A stretch of 64,000 nt of DNA from Camelus ferus (lineage: Eukaryota): positions 88,972,001-89,036,000 of the forward strand of contig NC_045696.1 of NCBI RefSeq assembly GCF_009834535.1, written 5' to 3'. Made by a program: the position numbers and the translations under genes. Within the stretch, counting starts at the first letter, position 1, and the number at the start of each line of letters is the position of its first letter. This document shows positions 8,184 through 61,558 of this stretch, piece by piece. The notes beneath the pieces are model-generated. The model searched no databases, had not been told where the DNA came from, and saw only the letters and a list, made by a program, of their open reading frames with translations.

Positions 8184-9316
8184 TAGTATCGATAATTCCA
8201 AGATTTACATTTCATAAATCATAATTTAAAACAATAGCAAGATAAACAGGCATTCTGTGATGTATAAGAGTGTCACCTTGACTTCCTTTAGTTACATTCC
8301 ACAGATATGAAGTATTCTTTTTTCAGCTTCTGGGCCTACAAGAATTTTCTAATCCATGATAAAATCAAGGTACTTATAGTCAGGGTTGTTTTGTTTTGTT
8401 TAAACAGTGTTAAGAAAAAAACAAGACTTTTTAGGTTGATAGGGCAGAATGAAACTGCCTCACAGATTCTCCTAACAAATGAACAACAACTAAAAAAGAA
8501 AGCAAAACAACAGCAAAAATTGTCCAGTAGCAAACCAAACAAGGAACTAAACTCAGCCAAAAAGCAGGGGCTAGGAACTAGGGTGAGCAATGTCAGGTGC
8601 CTAGGGCATAAAATGTAAAGAGGCACTCTCTCAGAGTTGCATGGATGATGAAGCTTAACACTGTGCCAGCTGCCAAAAGAAAATGACTTTTAAAGGTCTC
8701 AGGTATGTTTCACAGACAGATAAAAAGGGGGAATTTGGAACTGATAATTGTCACAGATAAGCTATAGATTGGTACTGACCAATGAATCCACTCAAATATG
8801 AATACAGAGCAGAATATAAATATAATACATGGAAATAACTAATAAAATAGAAAAATGATAGAAAAAATACTTTGAAAATATTATGGAACCAATAGAATAG
8901 TGAATTGAGAGGTGGCCAGGTTTTATGAGAGTGTTAAATGTTACAGCAAAGAACTAGGAGATGCTCTCACATTGAACAATCATAGTTTAAAAAAAAAATC
9001 ATCTTGTCTCTTAACTGATCTTATACTTTCTTAATGTTAAAAGGGAAAGGCTGTCTGAAGGAATGCTTATGGCAAAGAAATGTTTCATATGAAATAGAGT
9101 GATTACTTCATTTTTACTTTAGTTTTTTTACTAAGTTCAAGAAAAATATACTACATTAAAAAGAAAAGGTTAGATGAATGTTGTCTAACTTAACATGTGA
9201 GAGATGAGTTCATATTTCCATACTCAAGATTTTTAAGTCAAAATTATTCCAATGAGATAATAGGGTACACAGATGAAGTTCACTTCCCTTTATTATATCA
9301 TATTTATACTCTTCAG

Positions 9317-9479
9317 GTCGCCTACTTAATCCAACAAAATGTTATCCCACCTTTTTGCAACTTGCTGACTGTAAAAGATGCACAAGTTGTGCAAGTAGTA
9401 CTCGATGGACTAAGTAATATATTAAAAATGGCTGAAGATGAGGCAGAAACCATAGCCAATCTTATAGAAGAATGTGGAG
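9317..9479 (+). CDS. KPNA4: KPNA4 coding exon, 5th in window
   Basis: cttcag|GTC...GGAG|gtaaga; 163 nt, [17 protein letters not shown]...IANLIEECG+G (phase 1). Confidence 0.97.
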
Positions 9480-9669
9480 GTAAGATTATTATAAACTGTT
9501 ATTCTACATTTTGATGTTCTTTTTATAACTGCTTTTATTTTCTGACTGAGATAGCTCTTTTGTATTTTTGTGGCTTAGATAATCAAGTAACAGAATAAAG
9601 TTAAATACTATATTCTGTATGTACAGTCCTGCTTAGCTCTTGCACATGCTTAGGTAACTGAATTGTTGC

Positions 9670-26939: not shown

Positions 26940-27050
26940 TTTTTTTTTTTTTTCGTAGGTTTATTTATTTTTAGAGGGGGTACTGGGGATTGAACCCAGG
27001 ACCTCATGCATGCTAAGCATGCGCTCTACCCCTGAGCTATACCCTCCCCC
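26940..27050 (-). mobile_element. Vic-1-like tRNA-derived SINE
   Basis: Reverse complement of the SINE with a poly-T run; TSD AAGATAAGG on both sides. Confidence 0.9.
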
Positions 27051-31229: not shown

Positions 31230-31721
31230 GCTTATTTTTTTAAATTGAAGTCAGTTTACAGTGTTGTGTCAATCTCTGGTGTACAGCATGATGTTTCAGT
31301 CATACATACACATACATACATTTGTTTCATATTCTTTTTCAGTATAGGTTACTACAAGATATTGAATATAGTTCCCTGTGCTATACAGAAGAAACTTGTT
31401 GTATATCTAAGGCTACAAATATTTCCTGAACCCCTTCTGGTTGCTGAGTATGGCACTGGGCCCTAAGTCCCAGGATATTCAGTAGTAAATAAAATAAGAC
31501 AAGGTCCCTGCTCTCATATACTCATTCAAGCTGAGTGTAGCAGAGAACTGTTTTCTGTGTGTGTTTGTGTATTTATCACTTACAAATGATAAATATATAT
31601 CTATAAAGGGTGTAGTGATACATGTGTCATTAGGCGTTACACGTGTAACTCTAAACCTAAATCCAGGCCAATGAATGTGCAAGGGTCTGAGAAAGAAGTC
31701 ACAGGGTGAGCGCGGACTTAC

Positions 31722-34700
31722 CGCTTGCACAGCAGCTGCAGTCCTTCCTGCTGCTCTGAATGTGCTCTAAGTATCGGGGGTGACACGCAGGGTGCACCGG
31801 CTGAGGACTGCTTGCTCGCCTCTCTTCCTGTCCCAGCTTCGTCTTCCTTAGGACTGAAGCTCCAATTTTTTCCAGTGACTCTTTATTCAGATTCTCTTGG
31901 GTTTGATTCTAAAAGCCCTAATTAAGGCTCCTTACCATTCCTCCCTAGCAGTTGGCCAAAAAGCTTTTCAGGGATCACTGGGAACTGCTCTGAATGGCCT
32001 TTATTATTCCTGCTCTTCCCTAAATCTTTCAGGTGGAAGCAGAAAGGAAACTGGGAGAAGGAGGGGGAGGAGGATGGGCACATGGCTTTGTTCAGGCCCT
32101 TGGAGAGCATGGCCTCTCAGGCTGCCCCCACCAACAGGGGAGCTTTGGTATCGCGTAAGGACTGCACGTGGTTGGACAGTAAGGGCCCTCACGTTTAGCT
32201 GCCTGATCAACCCACAGCTCCCGGGGGGCTGCCACCCAGAATTGTAGCAGCACATCTACCCTGGGGCCCGAGGAGGCAGAGCAAGGCGACCCGGAGGATG
32301 GGATAGAGGACAAGGCTAAGAGAGACAGAGGGGATGGCAGAGACTCGGGGAAAGCCAGGCAGCCAGGGGAGCCCACTGGGGGCACCGCCCGCGGGAGAGA
32401 GCCCAGTTCCCACACACACCGCCTCAGACACAGCCATGAACTCCAGAAGCACAGGGAGGAACTGAGTGGATGATAGATTTTGCAGAGCTTCCAGGTACAA
32501 AACCAAACCCCACACATGATTCCAAAGGACCTTGCCTTCCCCCGATCAACTGCACAAAGTCTCGGAGGAACACCCCTCTCCACGTCACCCAGACCCACCC
32601 TAGGGAGAGAAGGAGCCTCAGCACTTGTCTCCACACGAGACTGAGCATGACCTAAAGAGACTTCTTCAGTGACAAGAGCAACTCAACTTTCAACTGGCAT
32701 TTCATTTTAAAGCTTTGTTTGGTAACAGCTAGTGAGTAGGAGCTCCCGGGGAAAGTCTCCAGATCTGCTGGAGCAGCTAGAGTTTAAAATAAAAAAGGTA
32801 CAGTTTATCTTTACATCCAAGGTGTAGAATGCTACGGTAGGGTTCTCTAGAGAAACGGAACCAACAGAGAGACAGACAGACAGACAGACAGGGAGATTGA
32901 TTTTGAGGAACTGGTTCAGATCATTCAGGAGGCTGAGAAGTCCCGATCTGTGGTCTGAAAGTTGGGGACCAGAGAATCAGGTGCCAAAGGTGTTCGTCCC
33001 AGTGTGAGCGTGGGAGGAGAAAGATGTTCCAGCTCGTGCATCAGGCGGAGTGAATTCTCGCTTCCTCCTTCTTTTTGTTCTATTCAGGCCCCCAGTAGAT
33101 TGGATGAGGCTCACCCACGCTGGGGAGGGCACTCTGCTTGTCTCAGTCTACTGCTTCAAATGCTAATCCCTCCCAGAAGCACCCTCGCAGACACACCCAG
33201 AAATAATGTTTAACTAGATATCTGGGCATTCCATGGCCCAGGCAAGTTGACACAGAAATTAATGCATCAGAGATGCTTTTTGTTTTAAACCCTGAAACGG
33301 GGAAGAGTCTTCTTCGTGGTCCTTCTCTTCCCCTCTGCAACTCCCAATCATAAAGCCGGCCAAGCCTGATGTGTGATATGCTAATGGGGGCAATGGAAGT
33401 TTTTTAGATGCTTTGTTTCTCAAGACAATAGTGTAGAAGATCTTAACAAAGCTATTATGTTGTTCAGAACTTTATTTTTGAATGTCAGAAGCTAATATTA
33501 CCAGTAATATTCCTAATTTCTCTTCCAGGCAGATGGATGTCCAGGGCCAACTCTAATGGTCATGTATTCATAAAGGCAAGGTATAGTGCTCATTAGTGAT
33601 TACAGAATATTGTTTCAAGTAAAATTAAAATCCATCTGTAAACACTTAGCCAGTTCACACCCTCTTCAATGCTCCCTGGTAGTGTACAGACAAGAGTGAC
33701 AGAATTACTCACTTGATTTTTTTCCTGCAAATGGAACTACATATAGTGACTCCCTGATTAACCTTGGATTCAATTTCACAAGGAATCTAATCACTGCTTT
33801 TCTGTTTGTGTGTGAAGGAAAAGGAAGAAATCATTACCTGTTAAATAAGCCAATGTGCTGCCGTTAAAGAGAGTGATAATTAGCATGATTGTCTAGTTTT
33901 CCCAAATGTTCTTTTTCTAATTTGTATTAATTGTTATTCATTCATAGCAGACCTAGAATAGCGAGAGAGAACTGTGATTTACGGATCATTTAAGATAGAT
34001 GGATTTATCTACTCCTTCCACTGTGTATTTGGCCTAAGAGATTAGTTTTTAATCTTAAATGATGAATGACAGTTTATGAGACACTAAACAACTTTTCATC
34101 TTTGCCTTTGAAGTAAAGTCAATTTTAGAAAAAAATTAATTTAAAATAAAAATGTTTCCATTAACAAAATCCTTCTGTTCATTGAAAGCTCACAGAGTTT
34201 AAATAGCCCTAGGATGCAAAAAAGCTTTCCAAGTGTACTCTGAGGCTCCGCAGATTAGAAGACATTCAAGGAGGGCCTGAGCTCTACGTACATAAGCAGA
34301 GGTTACCTCTCTCCAGGTAGAGTCAAAACGCGGTGGTAGAGATAGTCCTCTAGCTGGAGTCAAAGAGTTTCTTTCTATAAAAGTAACACTTCTGTTGCAC
34401 CCTAAAGGAGAAGAAGGATGGATTGTGCCAAAGATAAATGAGGGGGCTACTCATAGACAAAGAATATTCTAGACAATGCAGGGACCAATTTACATCAAGT
34501 TAACTGCCCTGGAGGTCAGAATGGTGGCTGTGGACAGAGTATGCAGTGACAGCCAAGGACACAAATCTGTTATAAAAGACGTTTGTATGAAAACAGATGG
34601 CCACATGCTGTCTCACGGAAGAGGTGGCTTCCCGGCCCCCATGCAAGGCCATGACTCAGGAAAGTAACCAAGCTGTCCTGTGCTCCGTGACCGACTCTGA

Positions 34701-35840
34701 GACTTGCTCCCACTCTTCCATTGTTTCCTTTCTTCTCCTCAAATTCCATAGCAGGAAGTTGTCAACTCGTTCAAATACCTAAGACCCACTTTTTTTTTTT
34801 TTATGATGTTCCTCTTCCTCCTTTCTTTAGTTCTTGCCACATCTGTGGGAAGACACATTCGAATTCCAAACGATTTAAAAGCAAACACCTGAAATATGCC
34901 TATTTGGAAGACAAGAATTTTCTCCCTAGGCTCAAGGAGCTCATACTGTCATTTATCTTGAGCCATCTTTGTACTGTACTTAGAAGGCATTGAATACATG
35001 GGGGGGGGGGGGAAGAACGCATCTTCTTCCTAGTAAATACACATGTACTATTCTTATTTTGCCATAGTCTATACATTCCATGAGGACAATCACCTCACAG
35101 CTATAATACCAAGAACCCCATTGAGATTTTTTTAAAATTTTGTTTAAAATAATTTAACAATGTCTTACTCTTAAACAAAATTATAATAATTGATCCACTA
35201 ACCCCTCAAAAAAAAAAAATGCTGGGGAAGAGAGAGCAAGCAGAAATCCAGCGCAACGTTTTACTGTTAATGTTTCCGCCTGTGTTGAGGGCAGCGGCGT
35301 CACTGGGACTTAATCCCCGGTGTGCGGGAGGTGGGGGGTGGTTCACTGGGCCGAGAGGCGGGGAAGGAGAGGAAATGGCCTCGGAGGGGCTCCAAGCAGC
35401 CAGCCCAGGGTTCGGGTGGCCACAGCACAGAGTTCTCCCCCTTTTATCCCCTTGCAAACAGAGAATGGTATTCACCTGTGATAAAGTGCAAACCCTAGCC
35501 CCAGCCTGCTCCCTCTCCGCGCCGCCTCGGCCTCCAGCCCCGCATCCAGGTCAGTCAGAGTTTTGACCAAATTGGTCGTTAGCGCGACAGGCAAGAAGCC
35601 CCTGAGACAGAAGAGCTCGCTAAATCCCCGAAGACGGGCTGTCAAACAACCGAAGGATTGTAAAGTGCGTAAGTCGTCTCCGTCCCCGTTTGCCAAACCT
35701 TCAGGGCCCGCCCTGTGTGCGCGGGTCTGGTCGCCCGGCCTCCGCAAGCCAGGAAGGCGCGCGGCTACCCCCGCCCAGAGGCCGCTGCTGCCCGGGTGTC
35801 TCTCTGACCCTCGGCGTCGTCCTCCGAGGCTGGCCCTCAT
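31722..35840 (-). pseudogene. Candidate decayed multi-exon gene B, unknown protein family
   Basis: Exons 35840-35476, 34401-34307, 33801-33713, 33365-32815 (split by an LTR) and 31908-31722, all with AG/GT boundaries. Phases join with one frameshift, in exon 2. Manual reconstruction only. Confidence 0.55.
32833..33271. mobile_element. ERVL MLT2-type LTR
   Basis: agggttctctagagaaacggaaccaacag ... gacacacccagaaataatgtttaactagatatctgggc ... aagttgacacagaaattaa; 5-bp TSD AATGC/GATGC. Confidence 0.88.
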
Positions 35841-35950
35841 TATCCCCGGATGATTACTGTTGTCACAGACCAGGTGGGGAACAGGACTGAAGAGATCCTT
35901 TCAGTCAGGACCCGCCCTCCCCCAGCACCAGGCTTAGCCCAGCAGCGCCC
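35230..35950. promoter_or_regulatory. Orphan CpG island
   Basis: Dense CpGs and high GC with GC-box-like CCCGCCC motifs; not adjacent to the KPNA4 or TRIM59 starts. Confidence 0.75.
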
Positions 35951-37994: not shown

Positions 37995-38164
37995 ATTTTT
38001 AAAAATCTAATTTAATTTTAAAACCATTTTATTTATTGTTTGTGGGGAGTTGATTAGGTTTACTTATTTACTTATCTATTTTATTTAATGGAGGCAGTGG
38101 GGATTGAACCCAGGACCTTGTGCATGGTAAGCACATGCTCTACCACTGAGCTATCCCCTCCCCC
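37995..38164 (-). mobile_element. Vic-1-like tRNA-derived SINE
   Basis: ggggattgaacccaggacc...ctgagctatcccctcccc; TSD TAGTG(G/A)ATTTACT. Confidence 0.9.
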
Positions 38165-41257: not shown

Positions 41258-41349
41258 GGGGGTGGGAAATAGCTCAGTGGTAGAGTGCATGCTTAGCGTG
41301 CACGAGGTCCTGGGTTCATTCCCCAGTACCTCCATTTAAAAAAAAAAAT
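41258..41349 (+). mobile_element. Vic-1-like tRNA-derived SINE
   Basis: atagctcagtggtagagtgcatgcttagc...gggttcattccccagtacctcc; TSD AAAAAATCAACAT. Confidence 0.9.
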
Positions 41350-49040: not shown

Positions 49041-51679
49041 GAAATAAAATGATTCTTAATGATAGTAAGTACAAGAGAAACTGTTAGGAGGAAAACTACT
49101 ATTGAACAAAAGACATCCTTTTAGTTTTCTAAGTTGCATTCAGAGATAAGCTGAAAAGGACTGTGTGAAAATAAATTCTATATAATATATTCTAGTGCTT
49201 AAAACCGTATAGTTTATATATTTTTAGGTACTAATATCAAATTTGGGCTCAAACTCAGTTTAAGGCAATGCCATCATGGTTAGTAGGTTCTTCTCTTCTG
49301 AAGATGAGGTTTTTTTTTTTTTTTCTTCTAGATTGCTCTAAGATCTCTTCCAATTCCAAATCTCTGAGTCTGAATTCTACTGCATCATGCTGAGTGCTTC
49401 CCTCCTGCCCCACCCCCTGCCCCACCTCAGATAAAAGGACCTTCGAGAACTGTTGGGTAAATTCTCCTAGCTCACTGTCCTTAATTCACTGCCACTATAA
49501 TCATGGCACCCATGTGGCTGTGCTTTCTTTGAAGTCCTGGAGATGAACCACAGATGCCTTATAATTTGGAAAATTGCATGTTCTCTTTACTATAATTCTG
49601 ATGAGGCCAATGTGATGGGAGATAACAGAGAATTATTTAAACTCAGTAGCTATTAAAACCCCAAATCAGAAAATGTTTTAGCTTGCCTAGAGGGCACCTC
49701 TCTGTGACTGAGGCCTCCTGTTTTGGCTCTTGAGACAGAGAATGTCTAAGCAGGGAGTCTGAGCACCAAAATTCATATTTTATTGCCTCCTCTTCATATC
49801 ACTTGTAAATAACTGCAAATATTTACATTTTATCCTTTTCCTAAATTCTTTCAAAAGGAGATTGGTGCAAGTATGTAGGTAGAGACCCAAAGCAGCTGAA
49901 CTTTCTCTCCATCTTTTTTTTGGGTAACTGAGCAGCTTAGCACCTCTGATTTTTATGCTTATGGATTTTAAGCAAATACTTCTGCATCTGAGTGTCACTT
50001 CTTCTGTCTGGTCTTTCCAGGCCAACGTGATCTTCTGCAGAGCGCATGAATCGCAGTCCCCATGGCCCAGTAGGTCCCCTTGACTGCTGCTGCTGAGGCT
50101 GCCGTGGTTTCTGCAGGCTCCTGTAGCTCTCTGCCACTTCCCCGTCAGGCCAGGTTACAGAGATCTTTGGCAGCGTTGGGAACCAAAGGGCCTCTAAAGC
50201 AGTCTCCCTGTAGGAACAGATGTCGCCCTTCCTTTCAGGTGCCACTGCTTCCCTCTGCTGATGCTTGTCTATTTGGGAGCTAACAGACTTCTCTTTCTGC
50301 TTCTCCCAAACATTCAGCCTCTTCTCTTAATTGTTCTGTACCTCAATGGATTGAGGCTTTTTTGGAAAACAAACGCCAGTTAAGTTTAGTAAGAGGTACT
50401 CCTGCTTTCTTGCTACATACAAAACTCTTTTTAAGGGAAGGAAGTTCAGAGGAAAAACACAGGTGGAAAGTAATTATTGCTCAAAGCATTATACAGACCT
50501 GTGAATTCATTCTAGAGGTAATTACACTTAAAATTTTTAAAAATTATTAAGACTTTATTTTATTTAGGTTCACAGCAAAACTGAGGGGAAGGTACAGAGA
50601 TTTCCCATGTATTTCCTGCCCTGCCCTCATGATAGTCTCCCACATCATCAACATTCCCCACTGGAGTATGGTACATTTGTTACAAGTGGTGAACCCACAT
50701 GGACCCATCATAATCACTCAAGTCCCTAGTTAACATCACTGTTACACTTTTTTAAACAGAGAATAATTTTATAGAAATATGCTGCATTTATGGCTATGGA
50801 AGGATATTCACAACATACTGTTTTGACAGGAAGTTAAAAAACTATCAGGATGGTTTCAATGTTTAAATAGAAAAATCTATGTGTACGATAAAGTCGAAAT
50901 GGATATATTGCACCGTGTAACAGAGGATATTTTGGATATCTCTGGAATCCACACATTATAAGCAAACTTTTCAGTAGTTGAATTGGTGAAGCCATCTGAA
51001 ATTGACTCAGGACTCACTGATGTTAACCTTAATTTGGTTTATACCGTTTCATATTTTTCTGTAATTTACATGCCTAAGACCTGAAAGTACTGGCAATACA
51101 CAGTATACCCAGGCTCATAGTTTTATTTAGCACAGCGGTAAATGCCTTCTAACTGCAGGAAAGAGAAGGAAGCTGTGAAGAGACTGTCTCTTGAGATACG
51201 GCTGGATAGTTTTTCAAGAAAAAAGAGGGAAAAGGATTACTGAACTGTATGTTTTCTTATTTCTAGGGGTTAAGAAGATGAAATAGGAACTTAGTGGAGA
51301 AACTGATTGGAAGCCAGAATTCTGTGCAACAGTCATGTTCAGGCAACAGCTTCATAAAGTGGAAAGAGGGACGGGGGCGGGAGGAAGAGTAGGGAGAGAC
51401 GCAGGGTGACCGTCCCAAATGAGTCCTAAGGTTCCACCAGCCCTCCCAGGGTTCTCTTTAAGTACAAGAGAATTCTCAGTAATCAGAAGCCCCCTCCTCC
51501 TGTGCTCAACCTGGTAGTCTGGTGGGTTTCTGTCTCCAGATTCTGTAATCAAAGGGAAACCCGGGCTCAGGGGAGAACGGCGATCACCCACTGGGATGCG
51601 AGTGTTGTCAGAGCATCTCGGAGCGGGGAACCCATGAGGTTAGAGTGGAAGGTGCTGCGCTTTAAAGCCTAGAATCAGG

Positions 51680-52560
51680 CCGTGCCGGCTTGGCTCCAGG
51701 TAAAAAAAAAAATAGTCCTACCAATCTGTTTTTTAAGAACTCATCGGCCTCCACCAGGCCCCGCCTCTCCCGGGGCCCCTGGCGCCTTCCCGCTGCCACA
51801 CGCGGAACTGCAGGCCAGGAGCACCGCGGCCAGAAGAACCCCGACACGCCGAGGCGCCTCCTGCGGCGCGCCTCGGGAGCTCCCGGGCGGCAGCCCGCGC
51901 CTAGTGCGCAGGCGCAGAAAGCTCTCCACGGCCCTCGCGCCAAGCCTCGCGATCACGCCCCCGCCTCGGCCGCAGCTGTCAGCAGTTTACTTTCGAACCT
52001 CGGCCCCGCGCTCTTTCCCATTGGCGGATGCCACGCAGTTGAAGGTTGCCGGGAGACTGCGCCTGCGTCTTGAGGCTTCGAAGCCCCGCCTGCTCTCGGC
52101 ACCTGAAGGCCCTCAGGGCTGAGGAGGGCGGAGACGCCGAACAGTTCTCAGCACCCGGGCGGAGGCCGCAGAGCTCTCCCTCTGCCGGTGGTGTTACCCC
52201 GTTTCGCCGTCCCCTCTGTGAGTCTAAGGAACATCTCTTCTGGTCCGAGAAGGCGGCTGTGGCCCCTCATCTTTCCCTGTGGCGCAGGCTGGTATAGTGC
52301 ATGTGTCTGGAGGAGAGTCGAGGCGCTTGATGTTGGAAAGGGCTGGCTTGGGTTCCGCGTCTCTTCCCTCCTGTCCCAGGTGGAGAGTTTGGGGAACCTC
52401 GGCTTCCTCCCTCCAATAGGGAACTTCTTTTCCTTGAGGAAGGAAGGCCCTCCTTAGTGGTGAGGCTGAGAGGGGCGGGATTCCGAGGAGCTGGGCGTCC
52501 TCGCTGGGGTTGGGAGCGGGGGACGCCAAGGCGCACTGGGAGATGCCCGGGAGGGTTTGT
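51680..52560 (+). promoter_or_regulatory. TRIM59: TRIM59 CpG-island promoter and probable non-coding exon 1
   Basis: CpG-dense; NRF1-like TGCGCAGGCGCA 51905-51916, inverted CCAAT (ATTGG) 52020-52024, GC boxes; candidate donor TCT|GTGAGT at 52217/52218. Confidence 0.85.
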
Positions 52561-55262: not shown

Positions 55263-55410
55263 GGGAGGGTATAGCTCAGTGCTAGAGCGCATGCCCAGCA
55301 TGCATGAGGGTCCTGGGTTCAATCCCCAGTACCTCCATTTGAAAAAAAAAAGCTAAAAATAAATAAACCTAATTACTCCCCCGCCAAAAAAAGAAAAGAA
55401 AAATTAAAAG
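55263..55410 (+). mobile_element. Vic-1-like tRNA-derived SINE
   Basis: gggagggtatagctcagtgctagagcgcatgcc...gggttcaatccccagtacctcc plus A-rich tail. Confidence 0.9.
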
Positions 55411-60346: not shown

Positions 60347-61558
60347 ATGCACAATTTTGAGGATGAGTTAACATGTCCCATTTGTTACAGTATTTTTGAA
60401 GATCCTCGTGTACTACCATGCTCTCATACATTTTGTAGAAATTGCTTGGAAAACGTTCTACAGGCATCTGGCAACTTTTATATATGGAGACCTTTACGAA
60501 TTCCTCTTAAGTGCCCTAACTGCAGAAGTATTATTGAAATTGCTCCAACTGGTATTGAATCTTTACCTGTTAATTTTGCATTAAGGGCTATTATTGAAAA
60601 GTACCAGCAAGAAGACCATCCGGATATTGTCACCTGCCCTGAGCATTACAGGCAGCCATTAAATGTTTACTGTCTACTGGATAAAAAATTAGTTTGTGGT
60701 CACTGCCTTACCATAGGTCAACATCTTGGCCATCCTATAGATGATCTTCAGAGCGCCTATATGAAAGAAAGGGACACACCTCAAAAACTGGTTGAACAGT
60801 TAACAGACACACACTGGACAGATCTTACTCGTCTTATTGAAAAGCTGGAAGAACAAAAATCTCATTCGGAGAAAATGGTCCAAGGTGATAAGGAAGTTGT
60901 TCTCCAGTATTTTAAGGAGCTTAGTGATACATTAGAACAGAAAAAAAAATGTTTCCTAACTGCTCTTTGTGATGTTGGCAATCTGATTAATCAAGAATAT
61001 ACTCCACAAATTGAAAGAATGAAAGAAATGAGAGAGCAGCAGCTTGAATTAATGACATTGACAACATCTTTACAAGAAGAGTCTCCACTTAAATTTCTTG
61101 AAAAAGTTGATGATGTCCGCCAGCGTGTGCAGATCTTGAAACAAAGACCACTTCCTGAGGTCCAACCTGTTGAAATTTATCCCCGAGTAAGCCAAGTATT
61201 GAAAGAAGATTGGAGCAGAACAGAAATTGGACAAATTAAGAAACTTCTCATTCCTGAAATGAAAATTTCTTCAAAAAGGATGCCATGTTCCTGGCCTGAT
61301 AAAGATAAAAAAGAAGTTGAATTTTTTAAGATTCTAAACATTGTTATAGTTACACTAATTTCAGTGATACTGATGCTGATCCTCTTTTCTAACCATCACA
61401 TAATAACTTTTTTAAATGAAATCACTTCAGTATGTTTTTCTGAAGTCTCTCTATCTGTTTACCAAAGTTTATCTAACAATCTGCATGATTTAAAGAATAT
61501 ACTGTGTCACACTTTATATTTACTGAAGGAATTCATGTGGAAAATAATTTCTCGTTGA
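60347..61558 (+). CDS. TRIM59: TRIM59, RING/B-box/coiled-coil E3 ligase with C-terminal transmembrane segment (403 aa, single coding exon)
   Basis: Intact ORF MHNFEDELTCPICYSIFEDPRVLPCSHTFCRNC (RING), CPEH...C...CGHC (B-box), coiled coil, hydrophobic ILNIVIVTLISVILMLILF; acceptor cttgacag 3 nt before the ATG; synteny with KPNA4. Confidence 0.98.
   Translation: MHNFEDELTCPICYSIFEDPRVLPCSHTFCRNCLENVLQASGNFYIWRPLRIPLKCPNCRSIIEIAPTGIESLPVNFALRAIIEKYQQEDHPDIVTCPEHYRQPLNVYCLLDKKLVCGHCLTIGQHLGHPIDDLQSAYMKERDTPQKLVEQLTDTHWTDLTRLIEKLEEQKSHSEKMVQGDKEVVLQYFKELSDTLEQKKKCFLTALCDVGNLINQEYTPQIERMKEMREQQLELMTLTTSLQEESPLKFLEKVDDVRQRVQILKQRPLPEVQPVEIYPRVSQVLKEDWSRTEIGQIKKLLIPEMKISSKRMPCSWPDKDKKEVEFFKILNIVIVTLISVILMLILFSNHHIITFLNEITSVCFSEVSLSVYQSLSNNLHDLKNILCHTLYLLKEFMWKIISR

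Follow-up and report, generated by a model that had tools for sequence, protein, structure and literature searches.

Unitary pseudogenes recognised with PhyloCSF, such as TMEM274P, PFN5P and a crescent remnant, are described in passages of PMC6886504 as single-copy, multi-exon loci with no paralogue, few lesions and weak or unknown expression. Their defining evidence was a working orthologue, which was identified in each case. Orphan CpG islands, as presented in PMC2944787, lie away from any named gene, carry GC boxes and lack a TATA box. A locus of Camelus ferus that resembles both was analysed within a window of 64,000 nucleotides (nt), i.e. the whole stretch of DNA considered here (NCBI RefSeq assembly GCF_009834535.1, contig NC_045696.1, positions 88,972,001 to 89,036,000). 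The locus lies between KPNA4 and TRIM59, on the opposite strand to both and 16 kb from the TRIM59 island, and consists of an orphan CpG island followed on the minus strand by a chain of candidate exons (35840-31718). At a little under even confidence, it is read as a unitary pseudogene, that is, a stepwise decayed, single-copy gene of five exons. The original prediction of a fossil gene thus stands as the single most likely reading, while the reason given for it (improbability by chance) and its stated form (the last exon and a barely disrupted state) do not.

35201-35950, no strand: orphan CpG island and likely promoter, with GC boxes at 35917, 35776 and 35713 and no TATA box; single copy

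The island was called in 200-nt windows with a GC content above 0.55 and an observed-to-expected (o/e) CpG ratio above 0.6. It was confirmed as real, with a GC content of 0.63 and an o/e ratio of 0.88 at 35470-35860, and it is orphan in that both thresholds are exceeded over at least 200 bp at no named gene start. The camel locus is single-copy and without a paralogue like the PhyloCSF pseudogenes, and would share their multi-exon structure, few lesions and weak or unknown expression if the candidate model is right, but no working orthologue was found for it at 50-60% identity or more among annotated proteins. Neither TRIM59 nor KPNA4 is mentioned in the main text and nine supplementary files of PMC6886504; files 1 and 8 were outside the search, and an entry by coordinates only is possible. 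The island shares distance from named genes, GC boxes and lack of a TATA box with those in PMC2944787, but differs by the candidate exon chain behind it.

In passages of PMC3616974 on the 13q14.3/3q25.33 paralogon, KPNA3-TRIM13 is set against KPNA4-TRIM59, and the window represents the KPNA4-TRIM59 side. The only other TRIM59-like frame at an expectation value (E) below 1e-20 was located on another chromosome (C14:9835593-9836492, 34% identical) and is taken as TRIM13 from known paralogy. A comparison limited to 30 kb of C14 without a recognisable gene showed no resemblance to any 13q14 gene. Pfam scans of the locus frames gave no SPRY match of the kind sought for a SPRYD7-like ohnologue. The mouse gene Gm1647 appears in passages of PMC4244117 and PMC4493743 as a poorly known rodent gene without human orthologue, next to Kpna4. 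It was rejected as a counterpart, since the gene order given there places it between Kpna4 and Arl14, on the other side of Kpna4. No literature was found on a gene in the KPNA4-TRIM59 interval.

Candidate exons, chance controls and coding signal

The candidate gene comprises the following features, in transcriptional order. Splice-site scores were obtained with a simple, untrained weight matrix of site frequencies.

35476-35840, minus strand: candidate exon 1; ATG at 35840, open for 121 codons plus 2 nt, GT donor (8.5), phase 2
34307-34401, minus strand: candidate exon 2; 95 nt, AG..GT, phase 2-2, acceptor 13.3, donor 6.4
33713-33801, minus strand: candidate exon 3; 89 nt, open, acceptor 3.5, donor 8.6
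33273-33380, minus strand: candidate exon 4, 5' part; acceptor at 33380 (5.0) or 33365 (0.6), in the same frame
32834-33272, minus strand, sense to the candidate gene: solo long terminal repeat (LTR); 439 bp, 5-bp target duplication, poly(A) hexamer decayed
32815-32828, minus strand: candidate exon 4, 3' remnant; weak phase-0 donor (2.9)
31718-32050, minus strand: revised last exon; phase-0 acceptor (14.1) at 32050, a single frame of 110 codons interrupted by two TAA
31722-31908, minus strand: exon 5 as originally drawn; 187 nt, open for 62 codons, acceptor 1.0, donor 9.3

The coordinates, translations, splice dinucleotides and phases (2, 2, 1, 0) of the chain as first drawn were all present in the sequence. 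All candidate exons lie in single-copy DNA, and a search of the genome returned the locus alone at E<0.05. The exons had been called canonical, which does not hold for all of their splice sites. Donors 1, 3 and 5 (8.5-9.3) and acceptor 2 (13.3) are strong and donor 2 is moderate, and four of the nine sites are weak, namely acceptors 3, 4 and 5 (3.5, 0.6 and 1.0) and donor 4 (2.9). Exon 2 is one base short; its halves are open in different frames, and the switch falls within 34362-34350, where no run exceeds three bases. A homopolymer error of the assembly is unlikely here, as extension of the sole three-base run creates a stop. The 5' part of exon 4 reads two codons into the LTR and then meets a stop; with the LTR left out, exon 4 consists of 33365-33273 plus 32828-32815 (107 nt). 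An in-frame TTG at 35696 in exon 1 has a good Kozak context and might, speculatively, be a decayed start codon.

The last exon was probably mis-drawn. Its coordinates and 62 open codons are correct, but the acceptor chosen for it scores 1.0 against 14.1 for the one at 32050, the strongest of the region, which accepts the phase-0 donor of exon 4. The revised last exon encloses the earlier one, which is read in a different frame. It closes on the TAA at 31720-31718 and contains an internal donor at 31935 (8.7). Against 1000 controls, the amino-acid composition of the revised exon gave p=0.004, compared to p=0.26 for the frame of the original exon 5. The hexamer AATAAA is found at 32005, 31887 and 29873.

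For chance controls, the best chain of four exons of 80-200 nt that keeps an open frame was determined, with exon 1 outside the test, in 24 stretches of the window, 16 stretches of chromosome C14 and 200 Markov shuffles. The best chain of the region scored 71.8, a value reached in none of the three control sets; exon 2 and the 32050 exon are common to this chain and the revised model. The revised chain, with the 32050 exon and acceptor 33380, scored 62.5. None of the 40 genomic controls attained this value (one had 62.5 after rounding), while 12 of 200 shuffles did. The chain as first drawn scored 45.6 with one frameshift allowed and was matched in 11 of 24 window stretches, 9 of 16 C14 stretches and 168 of 200 shuffles; with no frameshift allowed, the same score was reached in 2 of 24 window controls and 22 of 60 shuffles. 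The argument that five exons joined with a single frameshift are unlikely by chance therefore fails, because control DNA yields equal chains (20 of 40 genomic stretches). The length of exon 1 also means little, since the opposite strand of the island carries stop-free frames of 122 and 137 codons.

Base and amino-acid composition were compared to controls as well. In exons 2-5 the GC content at codon position 2 was low (p=0.008) and the amino-acid composition was protein-like (p=0.019), both values being uncorrected. Exon 2 alone showed low GC at codon position 2 with p<0.001 (1000 controls). The first 55 codons of exon 1 were not coding-like (p=0.88). As a positive control, TRIM59 pieces of equal length passed in 12 of 13 cases for composition and in 9 of 13 for codon-position GC. 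A statistic on purines at codon position 1 was dropped, as TRIM59 failed it (0 of 13). As coding evidence, the composition signal of exons 2-5 is modest. Judged with the revised last exon and by its codon composition, the region resembles a gene more than the controls do, the choices being post hoc.

The 3' half of exon 1 (35690-35478) was modelled from the single sequence with AlphaFold as a compact beta-beta-alpha-beta unit, with a predicted local distance difference test (pLDDT) of 79 and a predicted template modelling score (pTM) of 0.54; one antisense control gave 65 and 0.27. A Foldseek search with this model returned nothing at E<=0.001, and the best match (Z 4.9) was a generic alpha/beta fold. 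If a protein was lost here, it was most likely small, soluble and of the alpha/beta type, and outside any named family.

An RNA containing every exon would meet a stop at codon 139, which lies 239 nt upstream of the last junction. If exon 2 is skipped, exon 1 joins exons 3 and 4 in frame, giving 186 or 191 codons that end two codons inside the LTR, or 249 codons with the LTR left out. Part of 33290-35900 was contained in 20 of the 24 sequencing-run entries listed. Three of the runs, all labelled as RNA and from one study ('reproductive system'), contained 0.24-0.30 of the words, where 0.20-0.23 is expected for exons alone and 0.26 for the unspliced island. The observed share is close to both expectations, so that spliced and unspliced RNA are indistinguishable and the runs serve as a lead, not as evidence.

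Lesions, searches for relatives and age of the LTR

Several results on age, model choice and relatives weigh against a decayed gene. The LTR in exon 4, which we take to be of the ERVL MLT2 type, has at least 39 other copies in the genome at 72-82% identity. It differs from its sister copies by about 11% per lineage (75-78% pairwise identity over 252-420 nt, 7 of 7 copies aligned). The spread of ERV-L elements of such a type is placed at about 110 million years ago, in the ancestor of eutherians, in passages of PMC11359688. Simulated neutral decay at 11% introduced about 4 stops plus 4-8 frameshifts into 831 nt (about 8-12 lesions), and at most one lesion in the 831 nt of the chain as first drawn since the LTR insertion has P<=0.002. 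The 480 nt ahead of the LTR are as clean as seen with P 0.02-0.10. A last exon like the revised one, with at least two stops but no shift, arises with P 0.02-0.11. From the age of the LTR and the few lesions, a gene killed by the LTR would be too clean, and the claim of a barely disrupted gene conflicts with an old LTR inside exon 4. A recent death would leave intact annotated orthologues in other mammals, and none were found. Either the front part remained under selection once truncated, or the locus is an old fossil in good condition, of the kind that a scan would single out for its preservation, or it was never coding. On the side of model choice, the revised exon and acceptor were picked after the scores were known, which makes the figures generous; the 71.8 chain also uses 32599-32420 and 32315-32216, which are absent from both gene models; the two composition p-values come from 30 uncorrected tests on pieces picked by eye; and the other four AlphaFold models had a pLDDT of 61-68. 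A phmmer search with exon 1 against 1.84 billion representatives gave two tandem-repeat proteins and no homologue. Word searches with residues 55-121 of exon 1, exon 3 and the original exon 5, among longer proteins only, gave nothing.

The protein collection includes mammalian RefSeq proteins, and representatives may be more distant than cluster members. Exons 1 and 3 and the original exon 5 were the pieces queried against large protein collections. When relatives of the 3' half of exon 1 were simulated at 60, 50, 40 and 30% identity, E 0.001 was passed in 199, 187, 72 and 8 of 200 cases, respectively. Thus, exon 1 in this frame has no close counterpart in any annotated mammal, and distant relatives, such as a non-placental one, may survive at the 40 and 30% levels.

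Exact look-ups of seven frames, including the exon-1 peptide, found them absent from the collection. Pfam gave nothing at the curated cut-off for four exon peptides, for frames of at least 45 codons at 29.6-51.5 kb (111 of 117 on the minus strand and 98 of 109 on the plus strand; repeat frames dropped, one frame added), or for 87 of 103 shorter frames plus three. Four pieces had no credible match among PDB sequences, the 32050 exon showing a KH-like resemblance at E=1.6. Two pieces had no credible match in Atlas, and the 'recognition' value of 2397 for exon 3 is no evidence of a gene. Two scans of metagenome contigs gave no match. The original prediction had named the lack of any homologue as part of what would count against it, and none was found in the 1.84 billion representatives, Pfam, PDB, Atlas or the genome.

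Three specific origins were rejected. No parent gene was found elsewhere in the genome, as would be needed for a processed or duplicated pseudogene. The locus does not match the KPNA4 exons of the window, as a tandem duplicate of KPNA4 would. An armadillo-repeat protein was dismissed on account of matches to designed repeats of only 3-5 bits, summed, the absence of a Pfam Arm match and the beta-beta-alpha-beta model.

Neighbouring features

The 3' end of an importin-alpha gene lies on the plus strand of the window, with an Arm repeat at 9194-9511 in the Pfam scan. It corresponds to KPNA4 by the gene order given in passages of PMC4493743 and PMC3616974. A 403-residue RING/B-box frame at 60347-61558 belongs to a protein cluster named TRIM59. 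Gene positions and the pairing of MLT2 with ERVL are covered in passages of PMC4354741 and PMC5753468.

The segment 32700-32100 is GC-rich and CpG-decayed (o/e 0.33), has a stop-free frame of 196 codons, is single copy in the DNA search and contains several strong minus-strand acceptors (32599, 32315, 32260). On the minus strand at 37002-36895, 1 kb upstream of the island, lies another exon candidate (108 nt, phase 0-0), which has a strong donor (9.7) and contains one stop; it would turn exon 1 into an internal exon. At the TRIM59 CpG island (51600-52250; GC 0.65, o/e 0.88), a GT donor-like site on the minus strand near 51721 and a minus-strand frame of 129 codons at 50326-49937 may belong to a divergent transcript. 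Further exon-like minus-strand pieces at 47279-47166, 47027-46960, 46647-46400 and 43770-43440 appear protein-like by eye and gave no match in Pfam. One pair among them bears a loose SH3-like pattern. These pieces probably represent the other fossil gene first noted in this window; they are on the same strand as the 35840-31718 chain, and both could be one gene. Rfam returned four matches only, all resembling transfer RNA (26975-27046, 38089-38160, 41263-41334, 55265-55337) and none within the candidate gene; they look like heads of a short interspersed element derived from transfer RNA.

Competing readings and significance

A non-coding RNA gene is a possible reading, less probable than a decayed protein-coding gene. 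The island promoter would fire away from TRIM59, and the RNA would use donor 35476, exon 2 and perhaps exon 3 and 32050-31936, without ever having coded, the open frames being due to chance and GC richness. This agrees with the lack of a protein relative in any search and with the distribution of splice strength, in which the strong sites are real and those needed only for frame keeping are weak. Many orphan islands initiate transcription, as stated in PMC2944787, and in the parts of PMC3616974 on the paralogous 13q14 cluster, island-driven long non-coding RNAs lie among KPNA3 and TRIM13. However, neither the codon-position GC pattern nor the matched phases are predicted by it, and the spliced RNA is putative. 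Rather improbable is the absence of any gene structure, where an enhancer-like or weak promoter island would be followed by exons drawn from background AG/GT sites. The ease with which genomic and shuffled controls match the original score, the weak sites and the long frames on both strands of the island fit this view, but the best chain of the region lies above all 240 controls, and composition points the other way, both in exons 2-5 and in the revised last exon.

It is unlikely that the locus encodes a living, unannotated short protein, made by exon-2 skipping with 186 or 191 residues and ending in the LTR, or that the exon-2 lesion is recent or polymorphic. The open frame, an ATG in adequate context within the island and the AlphaFold model argue for such a protein, and selection that lasted until recently would match the low number of lesions in the front part (P 0.83 at 2% divergence). 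On the other side, annotated mammals have no similar predicted protein with at least 55% identity, the collection lacks the exact exon-1 peptide, and exon 2 has the best splice sites, so that one would not expect it to be skipped; codons 1-55 do not look coding and the poly(A) hexamer of the LTR is decayed. Equally doubtful is an unrecorded vertebrate family, alive in camelids or unannotated in other mammals, with a germ-line protein of about 190-220 residues whose C-terminus and stop come from the ancient LTR. An LTR that amputated the original last exon of a living protein would account for few lesions before it and nonsense codons after it.

In the favoured reading as a decayed gene, the ancestral frame would have begun inside exon 1, perhaps at 35696, run through exons 2-4 and ended in 32050-31718, with about 275-325 codons. 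The CpG island would once have driven this gene. The old LTR may then have cut exon 4 and placed a stop two codons inside itself, after which two nonsense codons would have arisen in the last exon and a single base would have dropped out of exon 2. The island may start minus-strand RNA today, and an all-exon RNA would be a substrate of nonsense-mediated decay by the usual 50-55-nt rule. We propose that the island persists because it escapes germ-line methylation, probably as a promoter that still fires.

If the locus is non-coding or due to chance, it is ordinary. If a working form exists, it would represent a mammalian protein without relative in 1.84 billion representatives, together with a datable truncation by an LTR. 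If it is a pseudogene, it would add an unrecorded gene loss to the much-studied KPNA4-TRIM59-SMC4 interval, which recurs in human association studies, and would explain the orphan CpG island, as a useful annotation of a known kind.

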